DNA from: an uncultured Bifidobacteriaceae bacterium
Lineage (GTDB): Bacteria; Verrucomicrobiota; Verrucomicrobiia; Limisphaerales; UBA11358
Direction of reading: 5' to 3'
NCBI GenBank assembly: GCA_964413165.1
Contig: CAYPSF010000002.1
Location: forward strand, 7,324 to 71,323
DNA length: 64,000 bases
A program made the position numbers and the translations under genes. Position 1 is the stretch's first letter; every line of letters starts with the position of its first letter. The notes beneath the pieces were generated by a model, which worked only from the letters and a program-made list of their open reading frames with translations, had not been told where the DNA came from and searched no databases. Shown here in pieces: positions 31,023-56,210 of the stretch.

Positions 31023-31072
31023 AAGTCTATTCAATCCCATGCTGGATGGGGTCAAGCCTGCCCAATGTGTTC

Positions 31073-33067: not shown

Positions 33068-33886
33068 TCACCACCAGAAATACACTCCGGCGATGTTTTG
33101 GGAGCGAATGATGATGTCGGGGTCAGACACATTGATCCGGTGCCATTCAACATGATTATCGAGAAAGGCCACATTATTGCCCACCGGCAGGCCCCAACTA
33201 AGATGGGGCGTTTGATGGAGTTCACTAAAAGCGCCTTTAACCGTAGTCCAATTGTCAGAACTGAGATTGGCATTGTTCTGCACCGAAATGACGGCACAGG
33301 TAAGCAAAACACGGTCGGACGGTGGCGGCGCCTGTGCGGTGCCACCCAGGTTGTCGATCCGGATTTTCGTCTGGATGAAACTGAAATTGAAATTGGAAAT
33401 AATAAGGTGGGACCCGATGCTGGCGTAATTGGCAATATCGGGAAAAGTGGCGGCATAACCGGTGACCCGGACGGCCGGGTTGTTTGTGAAATACCATAAT
33501 TCGTCGGTGTCCTGATCGGTGAACATCGGGTCGTACATGATGTGCCGTTGCGCACCATTATCGGTCAGCATGTCCGCTGTCTTGATAGGTATATCCCAAA
33601 GCCAGTTCGCCGGGGTAAAAGTGGTGGGCGGGTTATAGTTATTGGGAAGATTGTCCGCGGCATCGTTGGCATACATCCGCAAGGAGGTCGCGTATTGCCG
33701 CTGGTTGCTGGCATCCTGAATACGCTTGGCCTTGTCTTTGGCTTTGGCCAGTGCCGGCAACAGGATCGCCGCCAGAATGGCAATGATGGCAATCACCACC
33801 AGCAATTCAATCAAGGTGAACGCCCCGGCGCGACGTTGGCGCACAAGCGAAAACCCGGGCAGGCGATTCTGGGGATTGAAAATCAT
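33068..33886 (-). CDS. Prepilin-type N-terminal cleavage/methylation protein of the DUF1559 / H-X9-DG-like family
   Basis: [30 protein letters not shown] class-III signal. C-terminal variant motif [13 protein letters not shown]. An alternative start lies at 33910. Confidence 0.8.
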
Positions 33887-35179: not shown

Positions 35180-35354
35180 GTAATAATCCGGTACAACAAC
35201 AAGCCACAGCAACGGGGTTCATCCCCGTGGCTGGACGGCATTGTTCATGGCTTATACTATCACATGCGCCATCGGATGGCTGAACCCGACAGGGAATTTT
35301 GCACTTTATTGAAAATACGGTAAAAATGCAGCAATCAGGGGGAGGGGGAGGCGG

Positions 35355-37589
35355 TCATGGACCGTCGATCAGCCCGGTCGCTTCGCGCAGCAGAACCTGT
35401 GCAAAGAGCCAGTCGAACCAGAAACCCTGCACGCCGGTCCCCCGTTCCAAGCCTCCTTGCAACCTGTTTTCGATGATTTTACGGGCTTGATCCAGTTCGG
35501 AGCGGGCTTCGTCGGATTGTCCAAGTTGGTGGCAGGCCATGGCCAGGATAACCCGGGCGGTTGCCGTCCGCGGTGCGTTGTATTCCGAGTAAGCCAGACA
35601 ACGCCGGCACCAGCCAGCCGCCTCGGAGTAATTTCCCCGCCGATACTCCATCAAGGCCAGGGAAACTGACCGCCAGGCGGCGAGAAAAACGTCGCTGTCG
35701 ACATTGATGTTCGTGGCAAATGATTTTGCCGCTGCCGCCGCCAGGGGATCCAATGCCTTCAGAATCTTTTCATCCGCCGGCAGGAGCAGGCTGATTTTGA
35801 TGATGCGGTCCGCAAACGGGTATGCGGCGTCGGCAACGCGAGCCACGGCAGCTTGACGGAAGCGCTCATAGCCGGCGGTGTCGCCCAGTTCGATCAGCAC
35901 GGGACCGCACTCCAGATAATCCAGGGTGGAAATATCCCAGCCATCCAGCCGGTCGATTTGCAGGAGAACGGTAAAACGGTCAACCGCCAGCTGCCACTGG
36001 TTTTGCAGGGCATACCACTCGCCGAGCGAACGAAGCACGGCCGCGCCTTCCACCGTCGGCTCGGTAAGGGAAATCTCATTCATCAATTGGTCAGCTTCTT
36101 CAAATTTCTCCTGGATCACCAGCAGCCGGGCCTGCGTGATTTTCTCCCGGGTTTCGGCCTGGCGCCGCAATTCCGCTTCGTTGGCGCGGGCCTGTTCCGC
36201 TTCCTGACGCAAACGGGCCTGTTGTTGTTCGGCAGCGACCGCCCGTTGCCGGGCCACTTTTTCTTCGACGAAAAGCCAGGTCGAAGTCCCCAGGCCGATG
36301 ATGAGTGCGACCGCCACGGCTGCCCCGGCGGCAAAAACGACCTTGTTCCGGCGAACCAGTTTCTGGAACCGGTAAAACCGGCTGGGCGGACGGGCGACGA
36401 CCGGTTCATTGTTGAGATAGCGGTTGATGTCCATGGCCAGGCCGTTGGCGGTTTCGTAACGGCGCCGGCGGTCCTTTTCCAGCGCTTTCATCACAATCCA
36501 ATCCAGGTCCCCCCGCAACATTGAAATCAATTTAGGCGGTTCCGCGTGACGATGTTCGGCCGTCTTGGTGAGTTCCTGGCCCTGCAACGTGGTGAGCATG
36601 GTCGAAGGCCGCTGCGGTTCCCGTTCCCGCAACGTTCGCCGCATTTCATCCAAACCACGCGAGACCAGTTCCTTGGGATCAAACGGGGTCCGGCTCGTGA
36701 GCAATTCGTAAAGCAGCACTCCCAGGCTGTAAATGTCACTGCGCGTGTCAATGTCCAGACCGCTCATCTCCGCCTGTTCGGGACTCATGTAAGCCGGCGT
36801 GCCGATGATCTGTTCATAGGCCGTGAAGAAGGTTTTGTCCGTCAGCTGCACCTCGGTGGCCTTGGCAATGCCGAAGTCAATCACCTTGGGCACTGGCACG
36901 CCATCGTGCAAGGTGACCAGGATGTTCGACGGTTTGATGTCCCGATGAATGATGCCCTTTTGGTGGGCATGCTGGATGGCCTGGCAAATTTGAATGAACA
37001 AATCGAGCCGTCCGCGGGTGTCGAGCTGGTTCTGATCGCAGTAATCGGTGATTTTGACGCCGCGCACCAGTTCCATGACGAAATAGGGCCGGCCGGTTTC
37101 CGTCGCGCCCGCGTCGAGCACCCGGGCGATGTTGGGATGATCCATCATCGCCAGCGCCTGCCGTTCAGCCTCGAACCGGCCGATGACGCTTTTGGTGTCC
37201 ATGCCCAGTTTGATGATCTTGAGGGCCACGCGACGGCGGACTGGCTCTTCCTGCTCCGCCATATAGACCACCCCGCCCCCGCCTTCACCTATGCGCTGCA
37301 ACAATTTATAACGGTCGATGCGTGTGCCGGGAACCTCGGTCAGCACGGATTTGCCGGCAGCCATACCGTCGGCGGACTCCGAATCATCGAGTGACGCGGT
37401 TGCCAATGGCGCAATCTCGTCGAAAAATTTGTCCGCCTCCGTTTGGGCTGACAATAATTCCTCTACCTGGCCACGCACTTTGGGATCACCGGCACAGGCT
37501 TGATCGAGAAATGCCTGGCGGGCTACCGGGCTGGTCAGGTTCCGGGCGGCCTCAAACAATGTCTCCACCTGCTGTTTCGTGTCGGTCAT
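35355..37589 (-). CDS. Membrane Ser/Thr protein kinase with coiled-coil and TPR-like C-terminal region
   Basis: Hanks kinase blocks GEGGGGVVY, VALKIIK, HRDIKPSNIL, DFGIAK and GTPAYMSPEQ. One TM helix (VVFAAGAAVAVALIIGLG). Start at ATG 37589, 4 nt after the sigma-factor stop. Confidence 0.85.
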   Translation of the reverse strand: MTDTKQQVETLFEAARNLTSPVARQAFLDQACAGDPKVRGQVEELLSAQTEADKFFDEIAPLATASLDDSESADGMAAGKSVLTEVPGTRIDRYKLLQRIGEGGGGVVYMAEQEEPVRRRVALKIIKLGMDTKSVIGRFEAERQALAMMDHPNIARVLDAGATETGRPYFVMELVRGVKITDYCDQNQLDTRGRLDLFIQICQAIQHAHQKGIIHRDIKPSNILVTLHDGVPVPKVIDFGIAKATEVQLTDKTFFTAYEQIIGTPAYMSPEQAEMSGLDIDTRSDIYSLGVLLYELLTSRTPFDPKELVSRGLDEMRRTLREREPQRPSTMLTTLQGQELTKTAEHRHAEPPKLISMLRGDLDWIVMKALEKDRRRRYETANGLAMDINRYLNNEPVVARPPSRFYRFQKLVRRNKVVFAAGAAVAVALIIGLGTSTWLFVEEKVARQRAVAAEQQQARLRQEAEQARANEAELRRQAETREKITQARLLVIQEKFEEADQLMNEISLTEPTVEGAAVLRSLGEWYALQNQWQLAVDRFTVLLQIDRLDGWDISTLDYLECGPVLIELGDTAGYERFRQAAVARVADAAYPFADRIIKISLLLPADEKILKALDPLAAAAAKSFATNINVDSDVFLAAWRSVSLALMEYRRGNYSEAAGWCRRCLAYSEYNAPRTATARVILAMACHQLGQSDEARSELDQARKIIENRLQGGLERGTGVQGFWFDWLFAQVLLREATGLIDGP

Positions 37590-37593
37590 GGTT

Positions 37594-38166
37594 TCAGGCC
37601 TGGGATCGAATCTTTCGAAACAACCAGGCTTTCGCATAGGCCCATTGGCGCTCGACTGTGCGCTCCGTAATTTCCAGGGTCCGGGCCACGTCCTGATTGG
37701 TCAAGCCGCCGAAAAATTTCAAAATCACGATCCGCGCCTTCTCAGGGTCCTCGGCCTCCAACTGTTCCAGGGCCTCATCCATCAGCAGGATTTTATCATC
37801 GGGAGTCGCCCCGGCGATTTCCAACTCATTGATGTCCAATCGGACCTGGCCGCCGCCCCGTTTCAGCCTGGATTTGCGCCGGGCGTTTTCGATCAGGATG
37901 CGCCGCATCGCCTCGGCGGCGGCGCCGAAAAAGTGGGCGCGATTTTCCCATGTCCGATCACCGTCGCCGACCATGCGCAGCCAGGCTTCATGCACCAGGG
38001 CGGTGGCTTGCAGGGTCTGGCCGGCCGCTTCCTGGGCCATGCGCGCGGCCGCCAGCCGGCGCAGTTCATCGTAAACCAGCGGCAATAATTCCGCCGAGGC
38101 GGGATGTTGCCCGCGCCGGATGGCCTGCAATACCTGGGTGATTTCGCTCGTGTTTTCGGAAGGCAT
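37594..38166 (-). CDS. ECF sigma factor of the Sigma70_ECF / TIGR02999 type (kinase-associated)
   Basis: ITQVLQAIRRGQHPASAELLPLVYDELRRLAAARM, ATALVHEAWLRM, and region-4 HTH LTNQDVARTLEITERTVERQW. Start at ATG 38166. Confidence 0.85.
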   Translation of the reverse strand: MPSENTSEITQVLQAIRRGQHPASAELLPLVYDELRRLAAARMAQEAAGQTLQATALVHEAWLRMVGDGDRTWENRAHFFGAAAEAMRRILIENARRKSRLKRGGGQVRLDINELEIAGATPDDKILLMDEALEQLEAEDPEKARIVILKFFGGLTNQDVARTLEITERTVERQWAYAKAWLFRKIRSQA

Positions 38167-38362
38167 AGACAGGACTTCTACAAACCAGATATACCGACAG
38201 CTTACCCCGAGCAAACACCAAGTAAAGAAAACAGCGCGCCACCCGGCCCACCCGGTGAACCCAGCCATCCGCTCCCCGGTTTTTATCCGGAAATGGTCCG
38301 GAAACGGCCGGCAGCCAATCCCTCCAGTAGCCAAATCGGCCGGACTTTCCTATGCTTGGCCC

Positions 38363-42697: not shown

Positions 42698-45600
42698 CTA
42701 GAACGGTGCCAGCCGATAGAATACGGCGTTGGTCGTACCCGGTGTGTTCGTATAGCCATTAGCGGCGTCGGTTCCCGGAATGGTGACCCAATTGGTGCTC
42801 AGACCGATCGTCGCTGGATTGGTCTGGCTTTGCAAATGCAGGCCCGTCCAAGTGTCCGGCCACGACAGGACCAACTGCCCGCCCGGACTCGTCGCGCTGA
42901 TGGCTGGCAACGGCGCGATGCCAGACACTGTGACTGATCCGTCCAGCGCCAGATTGTTTACAAAGGTGAAACCCGGCAAAATAATCAGCATGGCAGCACC
43001 GCCGGTGACCGGCTGGCTGAAGATGGTGAACTGGTCTCCGACAGCGAGGGCCGGGCCGACATTGAGCAACTTCAAGGTGCCGCCGGTATAGTTGATGGCG
43101 TGGGTGACCGTGAAAACGCTGTTCGACCGCGGCGACAACGACTTGTTCAGGACCGCCCAAACAGTTCCCGATGAAATGTTCAGGTTGTTCGACACGATCA
43201 ACGTGCCGACCGCGCTGGCAGAGGCCGCAACCAGAGTGCCCCCTTTCACGTTCACGTCGCCCTCGGCCGCACTGACCACCAGCGTGCCGTTGCTGACCGT
43301 GGTGGGGCCGGTGTAAGTGTTCGCGCCGGTCAGGGTCACCGTGCCGGAGCCATTTTGCACCACCGCGCCCGGGGTCAGCCCATCGCCGATAACGTTGGCG
43401 ATCGTCACGTTGTCCGAGCGGTCGAACACGAGCGTGCCCTCGTTCACGATGGAACCGCTGCCGATGGAGCCGGTCGTACCGCCATTGCCAACTTGCAGCG
43501 TCGTCGCGTTGTTGCTGATCGTCGTGCTGCCCGGATAACTGTTATTGGCGGTAACGATTACCTTGTTCGTCAGCACCGTCAAGGCACCCGAGTTTGCCGC
43601 CGACGAGTCAGTGACCATACTGGTGATTCGGTTGGTGAACAAGTAGCTGCTCTCCGCATGCATGAAAATGAGTGTTCGGGTGAGGAAATTGGCACCCGCA
43701 GTGTTGGTAAACACGACATTGCCAACAATGGTGCCGGCGCCGGGATTGATGCCGTCACCGAGTTGAATGGCACCGCCGGCAATGAACGTGCCGCCGGTAT
43801 AAGTGTTTGTGCCGGCGAGCACGATCCAACCGGGGTTAGGGTTGAGGTTATCCTTCAACACCCGGCCGGTGCCGACAATGCTGTTGCTGTAACCGCGGGC
43901 TGCGGGGGAGAACTCTTGAGCGGTAAAGAGGAGCGTGCCGTTGTTGGTGATCGCACTGCTGGCTGACGCGCCTTGGTTGCCATCAATAAACTGGAACGTG
44001 GCCTCCGGATCTATTTGCGTCCAACCCGCATAGGTGTTCCCCGGCCCGGCGTAGGCCTTCACCACACCCGCATGCACAATCACATTTCCCGTGCCGCTGA
44101 TGATGGAATTGTAGGACGACAACACCGTCGGAGCCGTGCTGTTGAAGACCAGCAGGCTGTAATTGACGATCGCGCGGTCGGCCAAAGAACCGGCGGCACC
44201 GCCATTGCCGACCTGCAACATGCCCGCGTTGATGGTCGAGCCACCAGTATAGGTTTCATTGGCGGCCAGGATAATCGTGCCGGGGCCGTTGACGGTGAGG
44301 GAGCCGGTGCCGCTGATGACACCGCTGTTGGTCGTGGTGTTGGAGCGATTGAAGATCAGGCTGCCGTTGTCGGTGACGCCGCCGCTGCCGAGCGTGCCAC
44401 TGGTGCCGCCGTTACCGATTTGCAGCGTTCCGTTGGCAATCGTCGTCACGCCTGAGTACGTATTGGCGCCGGTCAAAGCCCACCAGCCGGTGCCGTTCTT
44501 CGTCAGGATCGTTGTGCCGCCGTTGTCTCCGAGCGAGGCCTCGAGCAGGTTGGTGTCCGTGCTGGTGCCGGTCAGAGTCAGCACGCGCGCGCCGGTTCCG
44601 ACCAGGCCCACAGAGCCGGTGTTGTTCAAGTCCAATCGGCCGGTACCGGGGGCGCCGGAGGCGTCAATCGTGCCGCCGCCGGTGCGCACCGTGAAGAGGC
44701 GGTCGATGCTGGCCGCCGGACCGGTGTATTGCAACGTGCCGCCGTTGAAGACCAGATTTGTCGCGCTGCTGCTTGCCGCCCCAATGTCACTGGCAGTACC
44801 GCCGTTGGCCAATGCGCTGACGCTCACGATACCGGCATTGAACTTCGTGACGCCGGTGTAAGTGTTGGCGCCGCCGGACAGGGTCAGTGTGTTATTGCCG
44901 CTCTTGGTCAAACCGCCCGTACCGCCGATGTTGTTCGCGCCGCTGGAAGCGATGCTGTACACGTTGGTGGTGTTGTTGACGGTAACGCCTCCCGGTATGA
45001 TGGCCGCGGCGACCGTCACGCTCAAGTTTGCGGTGGTCGTGTCGTCAAACAACGCCGCGCCGCCATTGACGAACGGCCCCGGCGTGGCGCCGACCTTCCA
45101 GTCCGTCGAAGTCGTGTTCCAATTGCCATCGGTCGCGCCGGTCCAGGTATAGGCCAGCCCGGTGATGTTCAGTCTGACCGTGTTGGTAAGGATCGAGAGA
45201 TAGCCACCTCCGCCAATCAAACTATCCAGGCTGACGGTTGGCGGCGAACCGGTGGTCCAGTGAAACAACGGATAGCTTTGTCCGGGGGTTAATGTGCCAC
45301 TGTTCACGTTGACGAAGAGCGTGCCAGGGGCGGTCAGCGTGCCCGCCCAGAGCGGCGCGGTGGCCGTGCTGTTGATGTTATAGAATTCCGTCATCGAGCC
45401 GTCACCGGTGGTGAGCGTTCCGGGCGTTACTTGCGTGCCCGTGTCCGTGACCGCAACGGTCGCGCCGGGCGACACACTGATGTCGCCCGAGCCGGTCTTG
45501 GTGCCTTGAAACCACACTTTGCCGCCGCTGATGGTCGTCGCCCCGCTGTAAGCGCTCGCACCCGAAAGCGTGAGGATGCCCGGACCGACTTTGTTCAGGG

Positions 45601-46771
45601 TACCGCCGCTGCTGGTCAGTGCGGACGCGAACGTCACGTTTTGGCCGGCCGTGTCAATGCGGTACGCCTGACCCGCCGCCGTGCTGAAGCGCGGAGAGTA
45701 ATCGAAGACGTTGTTTGTGCTGAATCCCAGCGTACCGCCGGTGAAGGAGATGGGGTTGACGCCGGAGCCGAGCGGGCCGGTGCTGCCGTTATCCGCGCCG
45801 CCGGCGATCAGTTCGCCGCCGCTAAGAAAGACATTGCCGGTGAAGCTGCTGGCGGCCGATGAAAGCTTAAGCGTGCCGGCATTCACCTGCAGGTCCAGAG
45901 TACCAGGACTACCGCCAATGGCCAAAGCGAGGGTGCCCGATTGCGCAGCAGCATCCCATTCCAACCGGGTAGGAATGGAGCCGTCATTGTTTTGGAGGGT
46001 CTGCGTTCCAGTGACAAAGGCAAGCAGATTGGAACTCTTGAGAATCAGGGTGCCGCCGTTGAGCGTCACCGGGCCTGCTATGCTGCTATTTTCCGCGGAG
46101 AAGGGGTTTTTTCCGGACGCCCAAATCATCGTGCCGGGTCCCGATTTTGCCACGACCGTCGGGCTGCCAGCCGCAGTGAGTAGGTCATTAGTAATGTGAA
46201 AATCTCCCGTGCCTTGAAAGAAGAATGTGTGAGTGCCGCCGCCGCCAAATCGCCACCTCGTGTTTGGTGTGATAATCATCGGATTCACTGAATTGTTTAT
46301 AAAATTTGCTGTCTCTCCACTCGCTCCTCCCCAAAGGGTATCAAGCGAATTGGTCATGCTGTCACTCCCCAGTTGAAAGCTCGCGGCGCCGCTATCCATG
46401 GTAATACTGTTGAATCGAATACCCGCGGACGCCGTATTTGCCACCGTCGTGTCAAAGGTCACCGGATCGACTTGATTGGCCGTAAGATGAACAACCAGTC
46501 CAATACCGGGTGAAGAATGGCCTACTTGACCGCTGCCGTTAGATCGGCCAATGACCGGACCGGTGGATTGACCGTCGAACAGCATGGTGTCCCCGCCTCC
46601 GTTGTTAGGATCTGGCACGCCATTGGGGTTCCAATTGGTGGTGCCGGCGAGGTCCAGCTGCCCACCCATGGAGTTAGTCCAGGTATAGGTCGTCTGGCCA
46701 TAGACAGCCATCGTTGCGAAGGCAACGCACAAAATGACGGTGAATTTGAGGATTGTGAGTTTGGTTTTCAT
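42698..46771 (-). CDS. Giant secreted autotransporter-associated beta-strand repeat (PATR) protein, paralogue 1 (1357 aa)
   Basis: Signal peptide MKTKLTILKFTVILCVAFATMAVYGQ. Many approx. 30-aa repeats of the form G-G-L-T-K-x-G-x-G-x-L-x-L-x-G-x-N-T-Y-T-G-x-T-x-V-x-x-G-T-L. No beta-barrel. Ends in ...LVLSWPDTW...AVFYRLAPF. Confidence 0.8.
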   Translation of the reverse strand: MKTKLTILKFTVILCVAFATMAVYGQTTYTWTNSMGGQLDLAGTTNWNPNGVPDPNNGGGDTMLFDGQSTGPVIGRSNGSGQVGHSSPGIGLVVHLTANQVDPVTFDTTVANTASAGIRFNSITMDSGAASFQLGSDSMTNSLDTLWGGASGETANFINNSVNPMIITPNTRWRFGGGGTHTFFFQGTGDFHITNDLLTAAGSPTVVAKSGPGTMIWASGKNPFSAENSSIAGPVTLNGGTLILKSSNLLAFVTGTQTLQNNDGSIPTRLEWDAAAQSGTLALAIGGSPGTLDLQVNAGTLKLSSAASSFTGNVFLSGGELIAGGADNGSTGPLGSGVNPISFTGGTLGFSTNNVFDYSPRFSTAAGQAYRIDTAGQNVTFASALTSSGGTLNKVGPGILTLSGASAYSGATTISGGKVWFQGTKTGSGDISVSPGATVAVTDTGTQVTPGTLTTGDGSMTEFYNINSTATAPLWAGTLTAPGTLFVNVNSGTLTPGQSYPLFHWTTGSPPTVSLDSLIGGGGYLSILTNTVRLNITGLAYTWTGATDGNWNTTSTDWKVGATPGPFVNGGAALFDDTTTANLSVTVAAAIIPGGVTVNNTTNVYSIASSGANNIGGTGGLTKSGNNTLTLSGGANTYTGVTKFNAGIVSVSALANGGTASDIGAASSSATNLVFNGGTLQYTGPAASIDRLFTVRTGGGTIDASGAPGTGRLDLNNTGSVGLVGTGARVLTLTGTSTDTNLLEASLGDNGGTTILTKNGTGWWALTGANTYSGVTTIANGTLQIGNGGTSGTLGSGGVTDNGSLIFNRSNTTTNSGVISGTGSLTVNGPGTIILAANETYTGGSTINAGMLQVGNGGAAGSLADRAIVNYSLLVFNSTAPTVLSSYNSIISGTGNVIVHAGVVKAYAGPGNTYAGWTQIDPEATFQFIDGNQGASASSAITNNGTLLFTAQEFSPAARGYSNSIVGTGRVLKDNLNPNPGWIVLAGTNTYTGGTFIAGGAIQLGDGINPGAGTIVGNVVFTNTAGANFLTRTLIFMHAESSYLFTNRITSMVTDSSAANSGALTVLTNKVIVTANNSYPGSTTISNNATTLQVGNGGTTGSIGSGSIVNEGTLVFDRSDNVTIANVIGDGLTPGAVVQNGSGTVTLTGANTYTGPTTVSNGTLVVSAAEGDVNVKGGTLVAASASAVGTLIVSNNLNISSGTVWAVLNKSLSPRSNSVFTVTHAINYTGGTLKLLNVGPALAVGDQFTIFSQPVTGGAAMLIILPGFTFVNNLALDGSVTVSGIAPLPAISATSPGGQLVLSWPDTWTGLHLQSQTNPATIGLSTNWVTIPGTDAANGYTNTPGTTNAVFYRLAPF

Positions 46772-46880
46772 AAGTTGTATTTCATGCCACACCGATTGCG
46801 ACGGTGATCCACTTCGCGTTTTTCGTGAAGCTTCCCACGGCACGGAACAGGATATTTTTATCTTCGTTAGCCCGGCTTTA

Positions 46881-48734
46881 TTACGGCGCCAGACGATAGA
46901 ACACGGACCCGTTGATCACATTCAGTGTGTTCGTATAACCATTGGCGCCGTCGGTTCCCGCAATCGTGACCCAACTGGTGCTCAGACCGATCGCCGCTGG
47001 ATTGGTCTGGCTTTGTAAATGCAGGCCCGTCCAAGTGTCCGGCCACGACAGGACCAACTGTCCGCCCGAACTCGTCGCACTGATGGCTGGCGACGGCGCG
47101 AAGCCAGACACTGTGATCGATCCGTCCACAGCCAGATTATTTGCGAAGGTGACACCCGGCAAAACAATCGTCATGGCAGCACCACCGGTGACCGGCTGGC
47201 TGAAGACGATGAATTTGTCTCCGGGCGCCAAGGCCGGGCCGACATTAAGCAACTTCAAGGTGCCGCCGGCATTGTTGACATCGCCGGCAACCGTAAAAGT
47301 GCTGTTTGACGGCGATAACGTCTTGTTCAACGAAACCAAAACGGTTCCTGATGTCATGTTCATATTGCTCGCGACGGTCAACGTGCCGATCGCTCCGGCA
47401 GCCGCTGGAGCAAGAGTGCCGCCGCTCACGTTCATGTCGCCGCCGACCAAGCCGACCACCAACGCACCGTTGCTGACCGTGGTCGGACCGGTATAAGTGT
47501 TCGTGCCGGCAAGCGTGAGCGTGCCGGAACCGAGTTTGGTGAGCGTGCCGCCGCTGCTGGTCAGTGCGGACGCGAACGTCACGTTTTGGCCGGCGGTGTC
47601 AAAACTATACGCTTGATTGGGCGACGGGTCGAAGCGCGACGAGTAATCGAAGATGTTGTTTGTGCTGAATCCCAGCGTGCCGCCGGTGAAGGAAATGGGG
47701 TTGGCACTGCTGCCGAGCGGGCCGGTGAAGCCGTTATCAGCGCCGCCGGCGATCACTTCGCCGCCGCTAAGAAGGACATTGCCGATGAAGCTGCTGGCGG
47801 CCGATGAAAGCGTAAGCGTGCCGGCATTAACCTGCAGATCCAGAGTACCGGGGAAACCGCCAATGGCCAAACCGATTGTGCCCGACGAAGGAGCATCCCA
47901 TTCCAACAGGGCCGGAATGGAGCCGTCATTATTTTGGAGAGTCAGCGGCGCAGTGACAATGGAAGATTGAAGCAGAGTGGAACTCCTGAGAATCAAGGTG
48001 CCGCCGTTAAGAATCACCGGGCCTTGTATGCTGCTGCTGCCAATTCCCCCGGAAAATGGGTTGCGTCCGGTCGTCCAAATCATTGTGCCGGGTCCTGATT
48101 TTGCTATGGACGTCTGGATGCCACCCGCGCCAATCAGGTCATTGGTAATGTGAAAATCTCCCGTGCCTTGAAAGAAAAAAGTATGATTGCCGCCGCCGCC
48201 AAATCGCACCCTCAAGTTCGGAGTAAAAATCATCGGATTCACTGAATTGTTTACAAAATTTGCTATCTCTCCACCCGCTCCTCCCCAAATGGCCTCAAGC
48301 GAATTGGTCATGCTGTCACTCCCCAGTTGAAAGCTCGCGGCACCGCTATCCATGATGATACTTTTGAATCGAATACCCGAGGACGCAGTATTGGCTACCG
48401 TAGTGTCAAAGGTCACTGGACTGACTTGATGCGCCGTGAGATGAACAACCAGTCCAACACCGGCTGCAGAAGATCCTGTTTGAAGGCCGCTGTTAGATCG
48501 GCCAATTACCGGACCGATGGATTGGCCGTCGAATAGCATGGTGTCCCCGCCTCCGTGGTTAGGAAGAGGCACGCCATTGGGGTTCCAATTGGTGGCGGCG
48601 GCGAGGTCCAGTTGCCCGCCCATGGAGTTGGTCCAGGTAAAGGTCGTCTGACCAAAGAACGCCAGCGCGGCAAGGGCGCTGCACAAAACGATGGTGAGTT
48701 TGGTTTTCACAAGCAGCAAGGATTGGATTTCCAT
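46881..48734 (-). CDS. PATR protein paralogue 2, a short form with an internal deletion relative to paralogues 1 and 3
   Basis: N-terminal ~400 aa and C-terminal ~200 aa are colinear with paralogue 1. The start is ambiguous: ATG at 48734, or GTG at 48710, which is homologous to the MKTKL start of the paralogues. Confidence 0.75.
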   Translation of the reverse strand: MEIQSLLLVKTKLTIVLCSALAALAFFGQTTFTWTNSMGGQLDLAAATNWNPNGVPLPNHGGGDTMLFDGQSIGPVIGRSNSGLQTGSSAAGVGLVVHLTAHQVSPVTFDTTVANTASSGIRFKSIIMDSGAASFQLGSDSMTNSLEAIWGGAGGEIANFVNNSVNPMIFTPNLRVRFGGGGNHTFFFQGTGDFHITNDLIGAGGIQTSIAKSGPGTMIWTTGRNPFSGGIGSSSIQGPVILNGGTLILRSSTLLQSSIVTAPLTLQNNDGSIPALLEWDAPSSGTIGLAIGGFPGTLDLQVNAGTLTLSSAASSFIGNVLLSGGEVIAGGADNGFTGPLGSSANPISFTGGTLGFSTNNIFDYSSRFDPSPNQAYSFDTAGQNVTFASALTSSGGTLTKLGSGTLTLAGTNTYTGPTTVSNGALVVGLVGGDMNVSGGTLAPAAAGAIGTLTVASNMNMTSGTVLVSLNKTLSPSNSTFTVAGDVNNAGGTLKLLNVGPALAPGDKFIVFSQPVTGGAAMTIVLPGVTFANNLAVDGSITVSGFAPSPAISATSSGGQLVLSWPDTWTGLHLQSQTNPAAIGLSTSWVTIAGTDGANGYTNTLNVINGSVFYRLAP

Positions 48735-48848
48735 CGCTGTAACTGGCGTCAGGCGCGGAATGTGATTAACAGCGCTTGCCGTTCCAATGGATCGTGTTTT
48801 CACAGGCGATAACCACCGGCGGTTCGGTCAACTTAAACAATGGAAAGC

Positions 48849-48882
48849 GTGAGTGGGTGGTGTTCGCACACCACCCACTCAC
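48849..48882 (-). terminator. Perfect 15-bp-stem hairpin between PATR paralogues 3 and 2 (terminator/attenuator candidate)
   Basis: GTGAGTGGGTGGTGT-TCGC-ACACCACCCACTCAC, 37 nt after the paralogue-3 stop. The downstream minus-strand sequence GCTTTCCATTGTTT is only weakly U-rich. Confidence 0.5.
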
Positions 48883-48918
48883 TTGCTACTTCAATTTATT
48901 CGTGTCAATTCAACTTTA

Positions 48919-51900
48919 TTACGGCGCCAAGCGATAGAACACGGCCCCGTTGGTCGGATTGATTGTGTTCGTGTAACCATTCGCGAGGTCGGTTCCCGGG
49001 ATGGTGACCCAATTGGTCTTCAAACCGGCCGCCAGCGTATTCGTCTGGACTTGCACATGCATGCCCAACGAACCGATCGGCCACGACAGCACCACCTGCC
49101 CGGCCGGATGCGTCACGGTAATTACCGGTGACACTGCCGGGATGGTGGACACCGTGATTGACCCGTCCGCAGCCAGGTTGTTGGCGAAGGTGACGCCCGC
49201 CGGCGGAACAATCACCACGCCAGCACCGCCGGTGACCGGCTTGCTGAAGATGGTGAACTTGTCTCCGACCGCCAGGGCCGGGCCGACATTGACCACCTGC
49301 AAACTGCCTCCGGTATAGTTGATGCCGTTGGTGACCGAGTAAACGCTGTTCGACTGGGGCGACAGCGACTTGTTCAGGACAGCCAAAACAGTTCCCGATG
49401 AAATATTCAGGTTGTTCGACACGATCAATGTGCCGACCGCGCTGGGAGAGACCGCAGCCAGAGTGCCGCCTTTCACGTTCACGTCGCCGGCCGCCGCGGT
49501 GAGCACCAGCGTACCGTTGCTGACCGTGATGGAACCGGTGGTCAGATTAGTGCTGTAGGGCGCGGTAAGCGTCAAGGTGCCAGAACCGGCTTGCACGACT
49601 GAACCCTGGGTCACCCCGCCGCTGATAACGTTGGCCAGCGTCACGCTGTCCGAGCGGTTGAAGATGAGCGTGCCCTCGTTCACGACGCCACCGCTGCCGA
49701 TGGAGCCGCTCGTACCGCCGTTGCCAACTTGCAGCGTCGACGTGCTGTTGCTGATGGTCGTGCTGCCCGGATAACTGTTATTGCCGGTAAGGATTACCTT
49801 GTTCGTGAGCACCAGCAAGGCACCCGAGTTGAACCCCGGCGAGTCAGTTACCACACTGGTGATTGAGCCCGGGAACGTGACGCTGCTATCCGCATAATTG
49901 AATATGAGGGTTCGGGCCAGGAGATTGGCCGTGGCGGTGTTGGTAAACACTACGTTGCCAACAATCGTGCCAGCGCCGACATTGATACCGTCGCCGAGTT
50001 GAATTGCGCCGCCGGCGATGAACGTGCCGCCGGTATAAGTGTTATTTGTGCCGGCGATCACGATCCAACCGGGATTGGCGTTGTTGTTGTCTTTCAACAC
50101 CCGGCCGGTTCCGACAATGTTGTTGCTGCAACCGCGGGCGGCGGGGGAAAACTCCTGACCGGTGAAGAAGAGCGTGCCGTTGTTGGTGATAACTGGGCTG
50201 GTTGACGCACCTTGATTGCCATCAACAAACTGGAACGTGGCGCCCGGATCTATTTGCGTCCAACCCGTATAGGTGTTCCCCGGCTGGCCGTAAGCTTTTA
50301 CAAAACCCGCATGCACAATCACGTTTCCCGTGCCGCTGATAATGGAATTGAAGCTGGACAAAACAGTCGGAGCCGTGCTGTTGAAAACGAGCAGGCCGTT
50401 ATCGACTATCCCGCGGTCGGGCATAGCACCAACGGCGCCACCAGTGCCAACCTGCAACGTGCCCGCGTTGATGGTCGAGCCACCCGTATAGGTTTCATTT
50501 GCGGCCAGGACAATTGTGCCGGGGCCGTTGACAGAGACGGAGCCGGTGCCGCTGATGACACTGCTGTTGGTCAGGGCGTCGGAGCGATTGAAGATCAGGC
50601 TGCCGTTGTCGGTGACGGCGCCACTGCCGAGAGTGCCGCTGGTGCCGCCGTTGCCGATTTGCAGCGTTCCGTTGGCAATCGTAGTCACGCCCGAATACGT
50701 ATTGGTGCCGGTCAAAACCCACAAGCCAGCGCCGCTCTTCGTCAGTATCGTTGCGCCGCCGTTGTTACCGAGCGAAGCCGCGAGTAAGTTGGTGTCCGTG
50801 TTGAGGCCGGTCAGCGTCAGCACCCGCGCGCCGGTTCCGACCAGGCCCACGGAGCCCGTGTTATTCAAGTTCAATCCGCCGGTACCGGGGGTACTGGAGG
50901 AGTCAATCGTTCCGCCGCCGGTGCGAACCGCAAAGAGGCGGTCAATGGACGCCGCCGGACCGGTGTATTGCAACGTGCCGCCATTGAAGACCAGATTGGT
51001 CACGCTGCTGCTTGCAGCCCCAATGTCACTGGCGGAACCGCCGTTAGCCAGCGCGCTGACGCTCACGATACCAGCATTGAATTTCGTGACGCCGGTATAA
51101 GTGTTGGCGCCGCCGGCCAGCGTCAGCATGACGTTGCCGTTCTTGGTCAGGCCGCCGCTGCCGCCGATGTTATTCGCGCCGCTGGAGGTGATGGTGTAAA
51201 CGTTCGTGCTGGTATTGACGGTAACACCTCCCGGCGAGACAGCCGTGGCAACGGTCACACTCAGGTTGGCGGTGGCCGAGTCATCGAACAAAGCCGCGCC
51301 GCCATTGACGAACGGCCCCGGGGTGGCGCCGACCTTCCAGTCCGTCGAAGTCGTGTTCCAATTGCCATCGGTCGCGCCGGTCCAGGTATAGGCCAGGCCG
51401 GTGATGTTCAGTCTGACCGTGTTGGCACTGATCGAGAGATTGCCAGCCGCGCCAATCAAGGTATCCAGGCTGACGGTCGGCGCCGAGCCGCTGATCCAGG
51501 CGAACAGCGGATAGCTTTGCCCAACGGTGAACGTGCCGCTGTTCACGTTGACGAAGAGCGTGCCGGGGGCGGTCAGCGTGCTCGCCGCGAGCGGCGCGGT
51601 GGCCGTGCTGTTGATGTTATTGAATTCCGTCGTCGAGCCGTCGCCGGTGGTGAGCGTTCCGGGCGTTACTTGCGTGCCCGTATCGGTAACCCCAACGGTT
51701 GCGCCGGCCGCCACAGTGATGTTGCCCGAGCCGGTCTTTGAGCCGACAAACACCAGTTTGCCCCCGCTGACGGTGGTCGCCCCACTGTAAGAACTCGCGC
51801 CCGAAAGCGTGAGGTTGCCAGGCCCGGATTTGGTGAGCGTGCCGCCGGTGCTGGCGAGTCCGGTCGCGAACGTCACGCTTTGTCCGATCGTGTCAAAGCT

Positions 51901-53007
51901 ATACGCCTGATTCGCAGCATTGGTGAAGCGCGAAGAATAATCAAAGGTGTTGTTCGCGCTGAATCCCAGCGTGCCGCCGGTGAAGGAAATGGGGTTGGCA
52001 CTGCTGCCGAGCGGGCCGGTGGTGCCGTTATCAGCGCCGCCGACGATCAATTCGCCACCGCTAAGAAAGACATTGCCATTAAAGGTGCTGGCTGCCGATG
52101 AAAGCGTAAGCGTGCCGGAATTAACCTGCAGATCCAGAGGACCGGAAATGGTTAAACCGATTGTGCCCGATTGCGCAGTAGCATCGTATTCCAACAGCGT
52201 CGGAATGGAGCCGTCATTATTTTGGAGAGCCAGCGTTCCAGTGACAATGGAAGGTTGAAGCAGAGTGGAACTCTTTAGAATCAAAGTGCCGCCGTTAAGA
52301 ATCACCGGGCCTTGTATGGTGCTATTTTCCGCGTTGAAGGGGCCGTGTCCGGCCGCCCAAATCATCGTGCCGGGTCCGGTTTTTGCCACGGACATTGCGC
52401 TGGCATTGGCGGTGACCAAGTCATTCGTAACGCGAAAATCTCCCGTGCCTTGAAAGAAAAATGTATGATTGCCGCCGCCGCCAAATCGGAACCTCGTGTT
52501 GGGAGTAATAATAACCGGATTCGCCGAGTTATTTACCCAATTTTGTATTTGCCCGCTCACGCCTCCCCAAACGGTATCAAACGCATTGGTAGTGGCATCA
52601 CTCCCCATAATAAAGCTCGCGGCGCCGCTATCCACGGTAATACCGTTGAATCGAATACCCGTGGACGCAGTATTGGCTACCGTAGTGTCAAATGTTACCG
52701 GACTGACTTGATTCGCCGTGAGATGAACATTCAATCCAATAGCGCTTCCGGAAGAGCCGGTTTGAAGGCCGCTGTTAGATCGGCCAATTACCGGACCGGT
52801 GGATTGGCCGTCGAATTGCATGGTGTCCCCACCTCCGGTGTTAGGATTGGGCACGCCATTGGGATTCCAGTTGAAGTTGGTGGCAAGGTCCAGTTGCCCA
52901 CCGGCGGAGTTGGTCCAGGTAAAGGTCGTTTGGCCAAAAACAACTGTCGTGGCGAACATGACGCACAACAGGATGGCAAGTTGGAGGCTTCTGAGTTTGG
53001 TTTTCAT
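48919..53007 (-). CDS. Giant secreted PATR protein, paralogue 3 (1362 aa)
   Basis: Signal peptide MKTKLRSLQLAILLCVMFATTVVFGQ. Colinear with paralogue 1 throughout. Ends in ...VVLSWPIGS...AVFYRLAP. Confidence 0.8.
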   Translation of the reverse strand: MKTKLRSLQLAILLCVMFATTVVFGQTTFTWTNSAGGQLDLATNFNWNPNGVPNPNTGGGDTMQFDGQSTGPVIGRSNSGLQTGSSGSAIGLNVHLTANQVSPVTFDTTVANTASTGIRFNGITVDSGAASFIMGSDATTNAFDTVWGGVSGQIQNWVNNSANPVIITPNTRFRFGGGGNHTFFFQGTGDFRVTNDLVTANASAMSVAKTGPGTMIWAAGHGPFNAENSTIQGPVILNGGTLILKSSTLLQPSIVTGTLALQNNDGSIPTLLEYDATAQSGTIGLTISGPLDLQVNSGTLTLSSAASTFNGNVFLSGGELIVGGADNGTTGPLGSSANPISFTGGTLGFSANNTFDYSSRFTNAANQAYSFDTIGQSVTFATGLASTGGTLTKSGPGNLTLSGASSYSGATTVSGGKLVFVGSKTGSGNITVAAGATVGVTDTGTQVTPGTLTTGDGSTTEFNNINSTATAPLAASTLTAPGTLFVNVNSGTFTVGQSYPLFAWISGSAPTVSLDTLIGAAGNLSISANTVRLNITGLAYTWTGATDGNWNTTSTDWKVGATPGPFVNGGAALFDDSATANLSVTVATAVSPGGVTVNTSTNVYTITSSGANNIGGSGGLTKNGNVMLTLAGGANTYTGVTKFNAGIVSVSALANGGSASDIGAASSSVTNLVFNGGTLQYTGPAASIDRLFAVRTGGGTIDSSSTPGTGGLNLNNTGSVGLVGTGARVLTLTGLNTDTNLLAASLGNNGGATILTKSGAGLWVLTGTNTYSGVTTIANGTLQIGNGGTSGTLGSGAVTDNGSLIFNRSDALTNSSVISGTGSVSVNGPGTIVLAANETYTGGSTINAGTLQVGTGGAVGAMPDRGIVDNGLLVFNSTAPTVLSSFNSIISGTGNVIVHAGFVKAYGQPGNTYTGWTQIDPGATFQFVDGNQGASTSPVITNNGTLFFTGQEFSPAARGCSNNIVGTGRVLKDNNNANPGWIVIAGTNNTYTGGTFIAGGAIQLGDGINVGAGTIVGNVVFTNTATANLLARTLIFNYADSSVTFPGSITSVVTDSPGFNSGALLVLTNKVILTGNNSYPGSTTISNSTSTLQVGNGGTSGSIGSGGVVNEGTLIFNRSDSVTLANVISGGVTQGSVVQAGSGTLTLTAPYSTNLTTGSITVSNGTLVLTAAAGDVNVKGGTLAAVSPSAVGTLIVSNNLNISSGTVLAVLNKSLSPQSNSVYSVTNGINYTGGSLQVVNVGPALAVGDKFTIFSKPVTGGAGVVIVPPAGVTFANNLAADGSITVSTIPAVSPVITVTHPAGQVVLSWPIGSLGMHVQVQTNTLAAGLKTNWVTIPGTDLANGYTNTINPTNGAVFYRLAP

Positions 53008-53133
53008 AAACGCTGAGGGTTGGACTCCCAACGCCGTGGCTGACGCCCGGCGCGGGATTTGCAGGGTTTGGGGGTTTGGAGTTTTCATTTTGTTTATCTG
53101 GGTTTTCGGTTTAGCGGTGAGGACTTAAAAGGG

Positions 53134-54024
<891 letters not shown>

Positions 54025-54064
54025 AGATTCGTTGTTTGGCGTTTAAATATTCTTCGCATTCCGG

Positions 54065-54643
54065 TCAGTATTTCGCCCCATTTCTGCAGCCGGCCAGTTT
54101 CAAAGCGTCGAGGCCCTGCCGGCCACAGTTTGCCTCCACTTCCGGATCCGGGCAGGAACCGTTGCGTTCCAGGCCGGCCCGAATTCCCCGGCCGGAGGAG
54201 AAACGCAGGGTAATACCGCAACTCCGGACAGCCTCCTTGGCTCCGTTCTTGAGCAACCGGTATTCGCTCGGTGCGACCTGGTTGACCGACTTGAAAACAC
54301 GTGAAAAATAGAACGGGTCGTCGTAGCCCAGCTTGGTGGCCACCTCCTTCACACTCAATGCCGTCTCGTCAAGCAACCGGCAGGCATGTTGCATGCGCAG
54401 GCGGATGAAGTAGTCAATGGGAGCACAGCCGACCTGACGTTTGAACAACGCGAAGAAATGGGACGGTGAAACATTGGCCAGGGCCGCGAGCGTGGCCACC
54501 TGTAACGTTTCATCCAGATGCCGCAGCATATAAGTGATGCTTTGCTCAATCTTCCGGACCGCTTCCGATTCGCAAGCCCCCCCCTGACCGCCGGCAGCAT
54601 TGGGAGAGGCCGGTTTCGGAGTTTCAATTTCAACGGTTTTCAT
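54065..54643 (-). CDS. Small AraC-family transcriptional regulator
   Basis: Two HTH units: LAALANVSPSHFFALFKRQVG and VKEVATKLGYDDPFYFSRVFK. Start at ATG 54643 (MKTVEIE...). Confidence 0.8.
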   Translation of the reverse strand: MKTVEIETPKPASPNAAGGQGGACESEAVRKIEQSITYMLRHLDETLQVATLAALANVSPSHFFALFKRQVGCAPIDYFIRLRMQHACRLLDETALSVKEVATKLGYDDPFYFSRVFKSVNQVAPSEYRLLKNGAKEAVRSCGITLRFSSGRGIRAGLERNGSCPDPEVEANCGRQGLDALKLAGCRNGAKY

Positions 54644-54721: not shown

Positions 54722-55933
54722 TCACGCGATCAAAGGCGCGCCAAAATGCTTCTGGAGCACGAGCGCCATGGTCCCCCGCAGCCGGGGTTGCGCTTCCGGG
54801 TCGGTAGGCAAAACCCGCGTGGCCGCATGGGTAAAGGTGCAGCGCCTGACGGCTTCGGTCACGACCGGCCCGACTTTGTCCCAGACCCGTGTCACCTCGC
54901 CCACCACCACCAATACATCCGGTGCCAGCCCGGTCACCAGCATGGCGATGCCGGTGCCCAGATGATGCGCCATTTGATTCAAAGCTTTACAGGCCCGGGC
55001 GTCATTCTGTTCCACCAGTCGCAAGATGTCGCCAAACGGCAGCTTGGCCATGTCACTCTTGGACCCGACCTCGCCTCTGCGGATCGACGCCGACTCAGCG
55101 TAATACCGCACCGCAGCTGAATTGGAAGCCAGCACCTCCCAGCAACCCGTGTTGCCACACCGGCATTTGGGACCGCCGGGCATCTGGGCGACGTGCCCGA
55201 ATTCCCCAGCCACGCCGTTGGAGCCCCGCACCAACTGACCGTTCATGATCATGCCCACACCGATGTCATCCGACACCGTCACGGCCACCAGGTTGCGCAC
55301 ACCATCCATGTGTCGTCCCGACCATAGTTCGGCCAGCGCGCAGGCGTTGGCGGCATTTTCCAGTTCCACCGGCAATCCAATGGCGCGTTCCAAATTCGTC
55401 TTTAAATCCAGATCACTCCAACCCAAGGTGGGCGCAAAGATTAATTGTTGTGACGAAGCGTCTACCCGGCCTGGCAGGCTGATGCCAATACCTTCGTAGG
55501 AGTTTTTGGGATGCGCCCGCATCAAATCCTTGACCCGGCGGCTTAACCGGGCGATGAATTCGGCCGGGTCCCTTTCCGTGGACATGGATTCCTGGGCCAG
55601 AAATTGGCTGTCCATGCCGGCAACCGCCAGGGTGGTTGTGGCCGGTTGAATATCAACGCCCACCACCCCGCACCGCTCGGTGTTCAAATGCAGAAAGGTC
55701 GGCTTGCGCCCGCGAGGCAGATCACCAACCGCCCCTTCCTTCAACCAGCGTTCCGCAATCAACTGCTCGGCAATCGCCGACACGGTACTGCGTTGCAACC
55801 CTGAGAAACGCATCAAATCGGCCCGGGAAACCGGTTGGTGCTTGCGCACCAAATTCAACATGATGCGACTGTTGATGTCGCGGACCGTTTCACTGGTCGC
55901 TACCTGAAAGTTGTTCAGATCAATTTTGCGCAC
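54722..55933 (-). CDS. ROK-family transcriptional regulator (XylR/NagC-like repressor)
   Basis: N-terminal winged HTH (INSRIMLNLVRKHQPVSRADLMRFSGLQRSTVSAIAEQL). ROK sugar-kinase fold with the zinc motif CRCGNTGCWE. GTG start at 55933. Confidence 0.85.
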   Translation of the reverse strand: MRKIDLNNFQVATSETVRDINSRIMLNLVRKHQPVSRADLMRFSGLQRSTVSAIAEQLIAERWLKEGAVGDLPRGRKPTFLHLNTERCGVVGVDIQPATTTLAVAGMDSQFLAQESMSTERDPAEFIARLSRRVKDLMRAHPKNSYEGIGISLPGRVDASSQQLIFAPTLGWSDLDLKTNLERAIGLPVELENAANACALAELWSGRHMDGVRNLVAVTVSDDIGVGMIMNGQLVRGSNGVAGEFGHVAQMPGGPKCRCGNTGCWEVLASNSAAVRYYAESASIRRGEVGSKSDMAKLPFGDILRLVEQNDARACKALNQMAHHLGTGIAMLVTGLAPDVLVVVGEVTRVWDKVGPVVTEAVRRCTFTHAATRVLPTDPEAQPRLRGTMALVLQKHFGAPLIA

Positions 55934-55973: not shown

Positions 55974-56003
55974 AATTAGTTCGTATGTCGAATTTTATTA
56001 GTT
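55974..56003. promoter_or_regulatory. Operator-like sites upstream of the ROK regulator gene
   Basis: AATTAGTTCG-TATGT-CGAATTTT is followed by a second ATTAGTTTAG 22 nt downstream. The sites lie 40-70 nt upstream of the ROK start in an AT-rich divergent region. Confidence 0.4.
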
Positions 56004-56210
56004 TAGCCCTGTCTGTCAAGGGTAAAGTTTGAGGGTCGAACAAATTCATTGTAACCATGCCAGAATTAAGAGCTTAAAGTTAGAGCATTATCAACGGTTA
56101 CCAACCGGTTCAATTTTCAGCCATTAAACCCCGTTAATACAGGGATTTTGCTGTGGTCTCCCCGCAGGCGAACTCCAGCTATCAGCCGGGGTCAACCCCG
56201 GCAAAACGAT

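Follow-up and report, generated by a model that had tools for sequence, protein, structure and literature searches.

The 64,000-nucleotide stretch of DNA analysed here (the window; GenBank assembly GCA_964413165.1, contig CAYPSF010000002.1, positions 7,324 to 71,323 of the forward strand) comes from a soil-type Verrucomicrobium of the Limisphaerales type. The named sources of close homologues of its proteins are Verrucomicrobiota or Limisphaerales, identical copies of its proteins occur on assembled metagenome contigs of up to 76.6 kb, and its G+C content is 54–63% (2-kb windows). Judged by its gene content, the window is a block of hemicellulose-utilisation genes. Within this block are two modules, with all of their genes on the minus strand, in which a regulator gene is followed by a gene for a prepilin-like protein (pil296 in module 1, pil280 in module 2) and then by one or more genes for large secreted proteins (three PATR proteins in module 1, dup647 in module 2). 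These large proteins have in common a C-terminal end of ~65 aa, the FYRL domain. The pairing of a prepilin-like gene with an adjoining gene for a secreted protein is, on the evidence of gene order, a conserved unit in this lineage and not a chance neighbourhood.

Module 1 begins with a ROK-family regulator (54722..55933, 403 aa), which is NagC/Mlc/XylR-like (PF00480, 5e-54; the NagC model gives 8e-47, below its cut-off). It is followed by an AraC-family protein (54065..54643, 192 aa in the public gene call) with a helix-turn-helix (HTH) domain only (PF12833, 4e-22, matched by residues 65–142 of a 205-aa open reading frame, ORF); its layout is MarA/SoxS-like and there is no ligand-binding domain. 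Then come the prepilin-type pil296 (53134..54024, 296 aa; N_methyl 1e-8, TIGR02532 2e-8) and three tandem genes for proteins of the PATR family (TIGR02601). These are PATR_A (48919..53088, 1389 aa), which has a Sec signal and is of the beta-helix type, its short paralogue PATR_B (46881..48803, 640 aa, or 617 in the public call), and PATR_C (42698..46774, 1358 aa), with their FYRL domains encoded at 48922–49131, 46884–47093 and 42701–42910, respectively. Neighbouring ORFs from ROK to PATR_B are separated by 40–115 nt, and the gap ahead of PATR_C is 37–106 nt depending on the choice of its start codon. A sigma-70-like promoter match on the minus strand (55992..56019, TTGACA-16-TAAAAT, 11/12 consensus positions), ~60 nt upstream of the ROK start, is, as a consensus match only, a candidate for the start of the module 1 transcription unit. 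An earlier note on this DNA, made from the letters alone, had given the AraC gene, the prepilin-like gene and the three PATR genes with correct coordinates and in the correct order; its list for the module did not include the ROK regulator.

The earlier note also placed the same gene order a second time further left, and this is found. Module 2 has a XylR-type hybrid regulator (33938..35212) that joins a periplasmic-binding-protein-like sugar-binding domain (PF13377, 2e-30) to an AraC HTH (PF12833, 9e-17), followed by pil280 (33068..33886, or to 33910; 272 aa in the public call) and the 647-aa secreted protein dup647 (31073..33016; FYRL 31076–31285). The gene for pil280 is the first of a long co-directional array. 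Downstream of dup647 this array continues unbroken on the minus strand (14999..31024) with genes of glycoside hydrolase (GH) families and a transporter in the order GH43, MFS_2, GH51, GH43 with two LamG domains (FYRL), GH51 (FYRL), GH51 and GH43 with LamG (FYRL), which from these families is an arabinan/arabinoxylan utilisation set. A third prepilin-family protein is represented by its C-terminal part only, as the gene runs off the left edge of the window (1..792, plus strand). The ORF that ends at nt 792, also listed in the earlier note, has a literal H-X9-DG motif (YHGGSSGISFADGH). This ORF is convergent with a GH26 gene, and therefore has no same-strand downstream partner in the window.

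Both AraC-type proteins match PF12833 and PF00165 and are thus members of the AraC/XylS family. A sensor domain (Peripla_BP_3, XylR-type) is present only in the hybrid of module 2. Of the regulators that the earlier note took to be sugar-responsive, the module 1 AraC protein is not itself shown to be so, because it has no sensor domain. The ROK protein that adjoins it is more likely to be the sensor, and is the probable sugar sensor of module 1. These are the only two AraC-type genes in the window, and each is directly upstream of, and co-directional with, a prepilin-like gene; the probability of this placement by chance is roughly 0.005, as an estimate rather than a computed value. In a 475-aa database protein, P0015, an AraC HTH domain is joined to a prepilin protein of the pil296 type (53% identity). 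Whether this is a real fusion or two genes merged in gene calling, it is a further sign that AraC and pilin-like genes are adjacent.

Support for the pair as a conserved unit, as the earlier note had supposed, comes from the synteny of both modules in related loci. The module 1 arrangement, with a divergent GH8 gene, ROK, an HTH-only AraC, a pilin-like gene and one PATR gene of ~1,400 aa, is kept in L084/L085 and in L086/L087, where the pilin-like protein is 54% (L084) and 51% (L086) identical to pil296 in independent assemblies. A relative 72% identical to pil296 also has the PATR gene after it (L094). The proteins shared with L084 and L086 have identities to those of the window of 79% and 90% for ROK, 71% and 80% for GH8, 66% and 74% for AraC, and 41% and 45% for the PATR N-terminal region, with GH115 at 76% (L084 only). 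The pilin-like protein and the PATR N-terminal region, having the lowest identities, are the fastest-evolving parts of module 1, which fits a role as exposed or co-evolving components. After the PATR gene in L084 and L086 there is a second pilin-like gene, beside BNR_4, GH115, GH30 with carbohydrate-binding module (GH30/CBM) or CE15 genes.

An order of pilin, cargo and again pilin is seen in several loci, with the second pilin-like gene at 15329–16150 in L084, 15571–16443 in L086, 13546–14502 in L097, 2711–3637 in L099 and 8306–9163 in L100. The window has no second pilin-like gene after PATR_C, unlike many of the related loci.

More distant relatives (36–45% identity, with one at 62–65%) have a downstream partner that is likewise large but of another fold. 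It is a PD40 propeller of ~1,050 aa in two of the loci, L090 and L095, and a 674-aa protein of unknown kind in L089. Elsewhere in the pil296/pil280 clade, L091 and L093 have a ConA-like duplicate of the dup647 type, as does the window. In L097 two pilin-like genes precede a 773-aa LamG protein, directly after which a third pilin-like gene is found. In the Limisphaerales-type loci all complete partners of pilin-like genes end in the FYRL motif, regardless of their fold. A FYRL hidden Markov model (HMM) was significant for most of these partners, weak for those in L095 (0.005) and L097 (0.001), and without a match in L090. A metagenome scan with the globular part of pil296 yielded 5 loci only.

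Among genes of at least 200 aa directly downstream of a pilin-like gene, 8 of 11 are FYRL-positive, against 19 of 120 others (Fisher p = 1.4e-4, from a test that counts orthologous loci as independent and uses crude ORF calling, both of which weigh against a functional reading of the pairing). If the partner families are taken as about five independent ones, at a base rate of ~16%, the chance of the FYRL link arising fortuitously is about 1 in 10^3, which is again an estimate and not a computed value. The reverse test took three FYRL proteins from the representative search, all of them PATR proteins. Two of the three are followed directly by a pilin-like gene, and in one of these two loci a further pilin-like gene, which is divergent, stands before a 1,151-aa fn3 protein. 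The third is truncated by a contig end.

The wider claim, that a triplet of regulator, pilin and large protein is a general rule, fails. A sample of 80 loci from bacteria of the Planctomycetes–Verrucomicrobia–Chlamydiae (PVC) group, one genome per species, contained ~100 prepilin-type genes (49 H-X9-DG, 10 H-X14 and 43 other). The scan was keyed on the generic FTLIELLV pattern and gives a broad PVC sample rather than orthologues. Same-strand downstream ORFs of at least 500 aa make up 18%, compared to a background of 18.6%, and signal-peptide-like N-termini downstream 41%, compared to 21%, by a crude heuristic; these figures are rough because genes were called by a simple ORF heuristic. AraC genes were found in 3 of the 80 loci, adjoining the pilin-like gene in 2, both divergent, and the Pfam families neighbouring the prepilin-like genes are heterogeneous. 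The triplet is not general across PVC bacteria.

The FYRL domain has 14 invariant positions in four of the window proteins. A 3-sequence HMM built on the PATR tails missed dup647, and an 8-sequence profile detects the homologues. Its matches amount to at least 8,572 clusters (50% identity), most of them with the domain at the extreme C-terminus. The domains beside FYRL in 46 sampled members include PATR in 20, Ig in 11 and LamG in 8, as well as lipases/esterases, propellers and cadherins. No Pfam model is common to all 46 members, and none matches the tails of the window proteins. No description of the domain was found in Pfam or NCBIfam, nor of its pairing with pilin-like proteins in the literature searched, the coverage of which is incomplete.

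That pil296 and pil280 belong to the prepilin family, for which the earlier note named TIGR02532 as the check, is confirmed by scores above the cut-offs. For pil296 these are 34.5 bits with PF07963 (cut-off 21.2) and 33.6 bits with TIGR02532 (cut-off 16.3), and for pil280 30.5 and 24.2 bits. The class III signal of pil296 has G-1, F+1 and E+5. F+1 and E+5 are invariant across 112 homologues, and the residue ahead of F+1 is G or A (the scan pattern taken from the alignment of these homologues). The sequence features that peptidase processing and incorporation into a filament make use of are all present. The motif of the pil296 family is H-X14-DG, with H257, D272 and G273 invariant in the 112 homologues, and that of pil280 is H-X14-DN; of the three pilin-like proteins of the window, only the 1–792 fragment has the literal H-X9-DG spacing. 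With 8,000 candidates scored, the homologues of pil296 amount to at least 7,897 clusters.

The label DUF1559/H-X9-DG, which had been given to both module pilins, is not supported by the models. Neither PF07596 (DUF1559, SBP_bac_10) nor TIGR04294 (H-X9-DG) matches pil296, pil280 or the 1–792 fragment at E<=10. TIGR04294 is a C-terminal model of 22 residues with a cut-off of 19 bits. As a positive control it gave 38–49 bits for planctomycete proteins and 13–15, below the cut-off, for verrucomicrobial H-X9-DG proteins. With both models negative and a control that worked, pil296 and pil280 were rejected as curated members of either family. Weak precomputed PF07596 matches do exist for relatives in L093 (37% identical to pil280) and L100. 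Alignment of the globular regions to canonical H-X9-DG sets with hhalign covers 16–20 columns near the C-terminal motif (probability 38–72%). Together with the constant alpha-1 helix, these columns suggest a superfamily that is pilin-like, in which the N-terminus and a short C-terminal element stay constant while the body is hypervariable. The description that suits pil296 and pil280 best is that of a verrucomicrobial branch, and a divergent one, of the H-X9-DG/DUF1559-like prepilin superfamily.

The AlphaFold2 (AF2) model of pil296 (pLDDT 92.7) has a 51-residue alpha-1 and, after ~180 residues of short helices and loops, an antiparallel sheet at the C-terminus, with H257, D272 and G273 on a strand and hairpin turn of this sheet. 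Against the Protein Data Bank (PDB), Foldseek matches this model to the type IV pilin 1ay2 only, over the helix, and returns no periplasmic binding protein and no carbohydrate-binding module. The profile of the 112 homologues likewise matches solved pilins and GspG over alpha-1 only. Searches of the PDB with the pil296 globular domain, by sequence and by fold, thus found nothing beyond the alpha-1 helix and lent no support to the idea of a solute-binding protein.

The three tandem PATR proteins are confirmed by TIGR02601 (cut-off 19.85), which scores 129.7, 43.7 and 113.9 bits in PATR_A, PATR_B and PATR_C, with PF12951 at 112, 42 and 90 bits. Identity between PATR_A and PATR_C is 78% along the whole protein. 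The shorter PATR_B aligns with their N-terminal ~560–620 aa at 58–59% identity and has no counterpart to their middle, and the C-terminal ~220–300 nt of all three genes share 76–89% DNA identity. The triplication is lineage-specific, as orthologous loci have one PATR gene. Across 42698–53088 the three genes are mosaics of DNA segments 75–90% identical, with the closest pair shifting along the gene, and the 5' leader and signal-peptide region are duplicated along with them. Such a mosaic suggests that the copies have undergone recombination or gene conversion with one another. PATR_A and PATR_B are separated by 115 nt, and this gap holds a hairpin on the minus strand (48849..48882) with a perfect 15-bp stem and no clear T-tract. 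The hairpin could act as an attenuator or on RNA stability, and in this way set the proportions of the tandem paralogues.

The AF2 model of dup647 (pLDDT 87.4), which has ~40 full-length homologues, shows a signal peptide, then two jelly rolls with an Ig domain between them, and a small C-terminal sandwich. Foldseek of the jelly rolls returns 3mep (TM 0.63), the C-terminal ConA-like domain of GH43 xylosidases and laminin LG; the Pfam LamG model has no match in dup647. A lectin-like, glycan-binding role, such as the earlier note supposed for the large proteins, is structurally plausible for dup647 from this model. Beside module 2, a Ser/Thr protein kinase with tetratricopeptide repeats (35355..37637, minus strand) is paired with an extracytoplasmic function (ECF) sigma factor of the PF07638 type (37594..38334, minus strand). 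In the three dup647 orthologue loci (L091, L092 and L093) GH51 is downstream and an ECF sigma factor and kinase are nearby in 3/3, a pilin-like gene is present in 2/3 (L091 and L093) and a XylR hybrid in 1/3. The sigma/kinase pair is therefore kept more consistently beside the dup647/GH51 cluster than either the AraC hybrid or the pilin-like gene, and it may be the main regulator of this cluster.

The window as a whole has three gene sets. Leftmost is a mannan set of GH26, GH130, GH26 with PA14, GH27, GH5 and an epimerase, next comes the arabinan/arabinoxylan set of GH43, three GH51, the GH43+LamG proteins and the MFS_2 transporter, and rightmost is a glucuronoxylan set of a GH43 xylosidase, GH8, a BNR_4 protein and GH115. 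Within the mannan cluster, 11012–12964 (minus strand) encodes a 650-aa secreted protein with no Pfam match. By eye it has GH5-like catalytic motifs (…WETGNELASPP…, …VIGEFGF…) and is possibly a divergent mannanase. A 233-aa ORF at 13174–13875 (plus strand), located where the mannan set gives way to the arabinan set, has a lipoprotein-type N-terminus (MRILWFIALVAVVSGC) and no family match. The gene at 23117–25834 (minus strand) encodes a 905-aa GH43-like protein with two LamG-type repeats, and the longest ORF of the GH51 gene at 20151–23282 (minus strand) shares 166 nt with it; an internal signal peptide (MKVVFKSCRRLV…) is the probable start of this GH51 gene. Rfam returned no match in the window.

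The reading preferred here, a tentative one and a serious possibility rather than a probability, is that a locus-specific pseudopilin-like subunit works with FYRL-tailed cargo in export or surface display. Each module would be a substrate-induced unit within a hemicellulose-utilisation locus. Sugars derived from xylan or arabinan would act on ROK in module 1, a sensor of the repressor type with the sensor-less AraC downstream as activator, or on the XylR-type hybrid in module 2. The regulator would then switch on the pilin-like protein together with the Sec-exported protein or proteins that end in the FYRL beta-sandwich. The pilin-like protein would be cleaved by a prepilin peptidase and enter a machine of the type II secretion or type IV filament kind, the genes of which would lie outside the window. 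Its fast-evolving globular domain would handle the FYRL-tailed cargo, either in passage through the outer membrane or in holding it at the cell surface. The cargo, adhesin-like PATR beta-helices in module 1 and a ConA-like lectin-type protein in module 2, would bind xylan or arabinan next to the secreted glycoside hydrolases. The pairing speaks for this cargo reading because synteny is kept, the gaps are of 40–115 nt, the genes are co-directional and there is a promoter-like site upstream of ROK. Also in its favour are the class III signal and pilin-like predicted fold, the link to the FYRL tail, the fast evolution of pilin-like protein and PATR N-terminus, and the pseudopilins reported with alginate use in Verruconatronum alginivorum (PMC13274419). 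A stronger form of it, in which FYRL is the handling tag of a PVC-type pathway and each locus supplies its own pseudopilin-like adaptor for the export or display of beta-helix adhesins, lectin-like proteins and enzymes with this tail, is unlikely.

Several observations count against a dedicated partnership between pilin-like protein and tail. The earlier note had placed FYRL on all the large proteins of the modules, and the domain is indeed real and shared by them, but it also ends four further secreted proteins of the window that are not adjacent to a pilin-like gene: GH51 at 20151–23282, GH43 with two LamG domains at 23117–25834, GH43 with LamG at 14999–17491, and the BNR_4 protein at 57805–60066 (minus strand, FYRL-type end …AAYYRVTWP), which has no pilin-like neighbour. 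The first three of these are within the array headed by pil280. In some of the profile matches FYRL occurs in tandem arrays of up to 17 copies. Its presence on non-adjacent proteins and in such arrays suggests a general Ig-like module rather than a dedicated tag, and given the number of clusters the supposition of a private partner domain does not hold. Some pilin-like genes are followed by tail-less proteins, a GH30/CBM in L084 and an esterase in L100. A pil296 relative in L088 is without a partner of this kind, and L092 has the dup647 orthologue without a pilin-like gene. Lastly, a Pfam scan of the window ORFs gave no match to an ATPase, platform protein or secretin of type II secretion (T2SS) or type IV pilus systems or to a prepilin peptidase, in agreement with the earlier note, which had seen no pilus or T2SS assembly genes.

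From such observations the adjacency could be taken as functionally meaningless, with pilin-like paralogues and FYRL proteins being abundant and clustering in rearranged accessory regions. Neighbours in the broad PVC sample are of mixed families and do not exceed the background in size, the FYRL tail is on 8 of ~33 window genes, and the region is dynamic, with tandem duplication and mosaic identity. However, gene order is kept at 51–54% pilin identity in different assemblies, FYRL genes are enriched directly downstream of pilin-like genes (8/11, compared to 16% elsewhere), the genes are tightly spaced and co-directional, and both AraC genes of the window have the same position relative to the pilin-like gene, making a chance neighbourhood very unlikely. 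Alternatively, the pilin-like proteins could be anchored in the inner membrane by their class III helix and bind or sense oligosaccharides in the periplasm, feeding the MFS transporter or the regulators. Pfam places DUF1559 among the solute-binding-protein families, as SBP_bac_10 (PMC2754498), there are archaeal sugar-binding proteins with class III signals (PMC3047682), and an MFS_2 sugar transporter is within the module 2 array. Yet pil296 and pil280 have no PF07596 match, the confident model is pilin-type with no periplasmic-binding-protein fold in Foldseek, and E+5 and the hydrophobic alpha-1 N-terminus, which are features of filament assembly, are invariant; this arrangement is decidedly improbable.

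In another explanation it would be the pilin-like proteins that catch the glycans, as major or tip subunits of polysaccharide-binding fibres with a variant for the substrate of each locus, and the large proteins would be merely co-regulated neighbours. Dextran binds to pili-like fibres of Planctomycetes (PMC5394234). The globular region is hypervariable between subfamilies, as expected of substrate-specific variants, several aromatic and acidic positions are invariant or near-invariant in the 112 pil296 homologues (W62, Y69, D72, W92, D93, W112 and F113), and a pseudopilin is induced on alginate (PMC13274419). Against this, Foldseek detected no carbohydrate-binding fold for the globular domain in the PDB, and the constant FYRL tail on partners of changing fold is left unexplained. 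The pilin-like proteins are rather unlikely to act as fibre subunits of this kind, and the handling of FYRL-tailed cargo by a locus-specific pseudopilin-like subunit is retained as the preferred reading.

The conserved pairing of pilin-like gene and FYRL tail is the part worth following. Prepilin-type paralogues number 68 copies in Planctopirus, 74 in Rhodopirellula and, as pulG-like genes, 67 in Verruconatronum (PMC10632474, PMC2754498, PMC13274419), and DUF1559 has been noted as a very large paralogue family of unknown function (PMC10632474). At 67–74 copies in three PVC genomes, such DUF1559/H-X9-DG-type paralogues rank with the largest protein families that lack an assigned function. In breaking down complex polysaccharides, PVC bacteria do without the Sus/TonB systems of Bacteroidota. 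Substrate-responsive paralogues in polysaccharide loci have been reported once previously, for Verruconatronum alginivorum, in which a pulG-like pseudopilin gene with 67 paralogues is inside an alginate-induced cluster and another pseudopilin is over-expressed on alginate (PMC13274419). A conserved pair of pilin-like and secreted protein, with a common tail on differing folds, gives a testable handle on function. If FYRL were the proposed tag, this would be a new cargo-sorting principle for type II/type IV filament machines, and would give a function to the large DUF1559/H-X9-DG-like paralogue expansions.

Compared to the DUF1559/H-X9-DG family, pil296 and pil280 have the same class III signal, a similar length (~250–350 aa) and the C-terminal ...H...DG[HS]V... 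strand-turn motif. They differ in scoring below both curated models and in the H-X14-D[GN] spacing, and outside alpha-1 they align over the 16–20 motif columns only. With GspG-K and type IV pilins they share the cleavage/methylation motif with E+5 and a long alpha-1 packed against a C-terminal beta-sheet, and GspG and PilA are their best partial model matches. No equivalog model assigns them to these proteins, however. The GspG model TIGR01710 gives 31.6–33.2 bits against a cut-off of 88.85, through an N-terminal match only (of its 134 positions, 1–52 are matched by pil296 and 3–57 by pil280). Their length is also about double that of GspG, the ~180 residues that separate alpha-1 from the sheet have no structural match, and unlike the genes of gsp/pil operons theirs stand singly in catabolic loci, with dozens of paralogues per genome.

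The Sulfolobus bindosome is similar in having a pilin-type signal on proteins encoded with sugar-utilisation genes, with the machinery elsewhere (PMC3047682). The bindosome proteins are ABC solute-binding proteins of known fold, assembled by Bas, whereas those of the window are predicted to be pilin-like, are encoded without an ABC transporter and belong to a diderm bacterium. The Sus loci of Bacteroidota, with their SusD/E/F-like proteins, resemble module 2 in that a non-catalytic, lectin-like protein, here dup647, shares its locus, and probably its regulation, with glycoside hydrolases and a regulator that senses sugar. The setting is otherwise Sus-independent within the window, as the earlier note had supposed: no SusD family, SusC/D pair or TonB-dependent receptor was matched among the window ORFs scanned, and dup647 and the PATR proteins are without a lipoprotein signal.

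The PATR/TIGR02601 repeats take their name from type Va autotransporters, and the PATR proteins weakly match the passenger beta-helices of IcsA and of a serine-protease autotransporter. They were rejected as classical type Va autotransporters, since no autotransporter beta-barrel family is among their Pfam and NCBIfam matches and in place of a C-terminal barrel they end in the 65-aa FYRL domain. Sorting of the large proteins by PEP-CTERM or by the C-terminal domain of type IX secretion (T9SS) was likewise rejected, as the defining domains were not seen with Pfam or NCBIfam, and FYRL, unlike these sorting domains, also occurs as internal tandem repeats. The likeness to T9SS and PEP-CTERM signals is that FYRL is a small domain at the extreme C-terminus of many otherwise unrelated secreted proteins, enzymes as well as adhesin-like ones, of one lineage.

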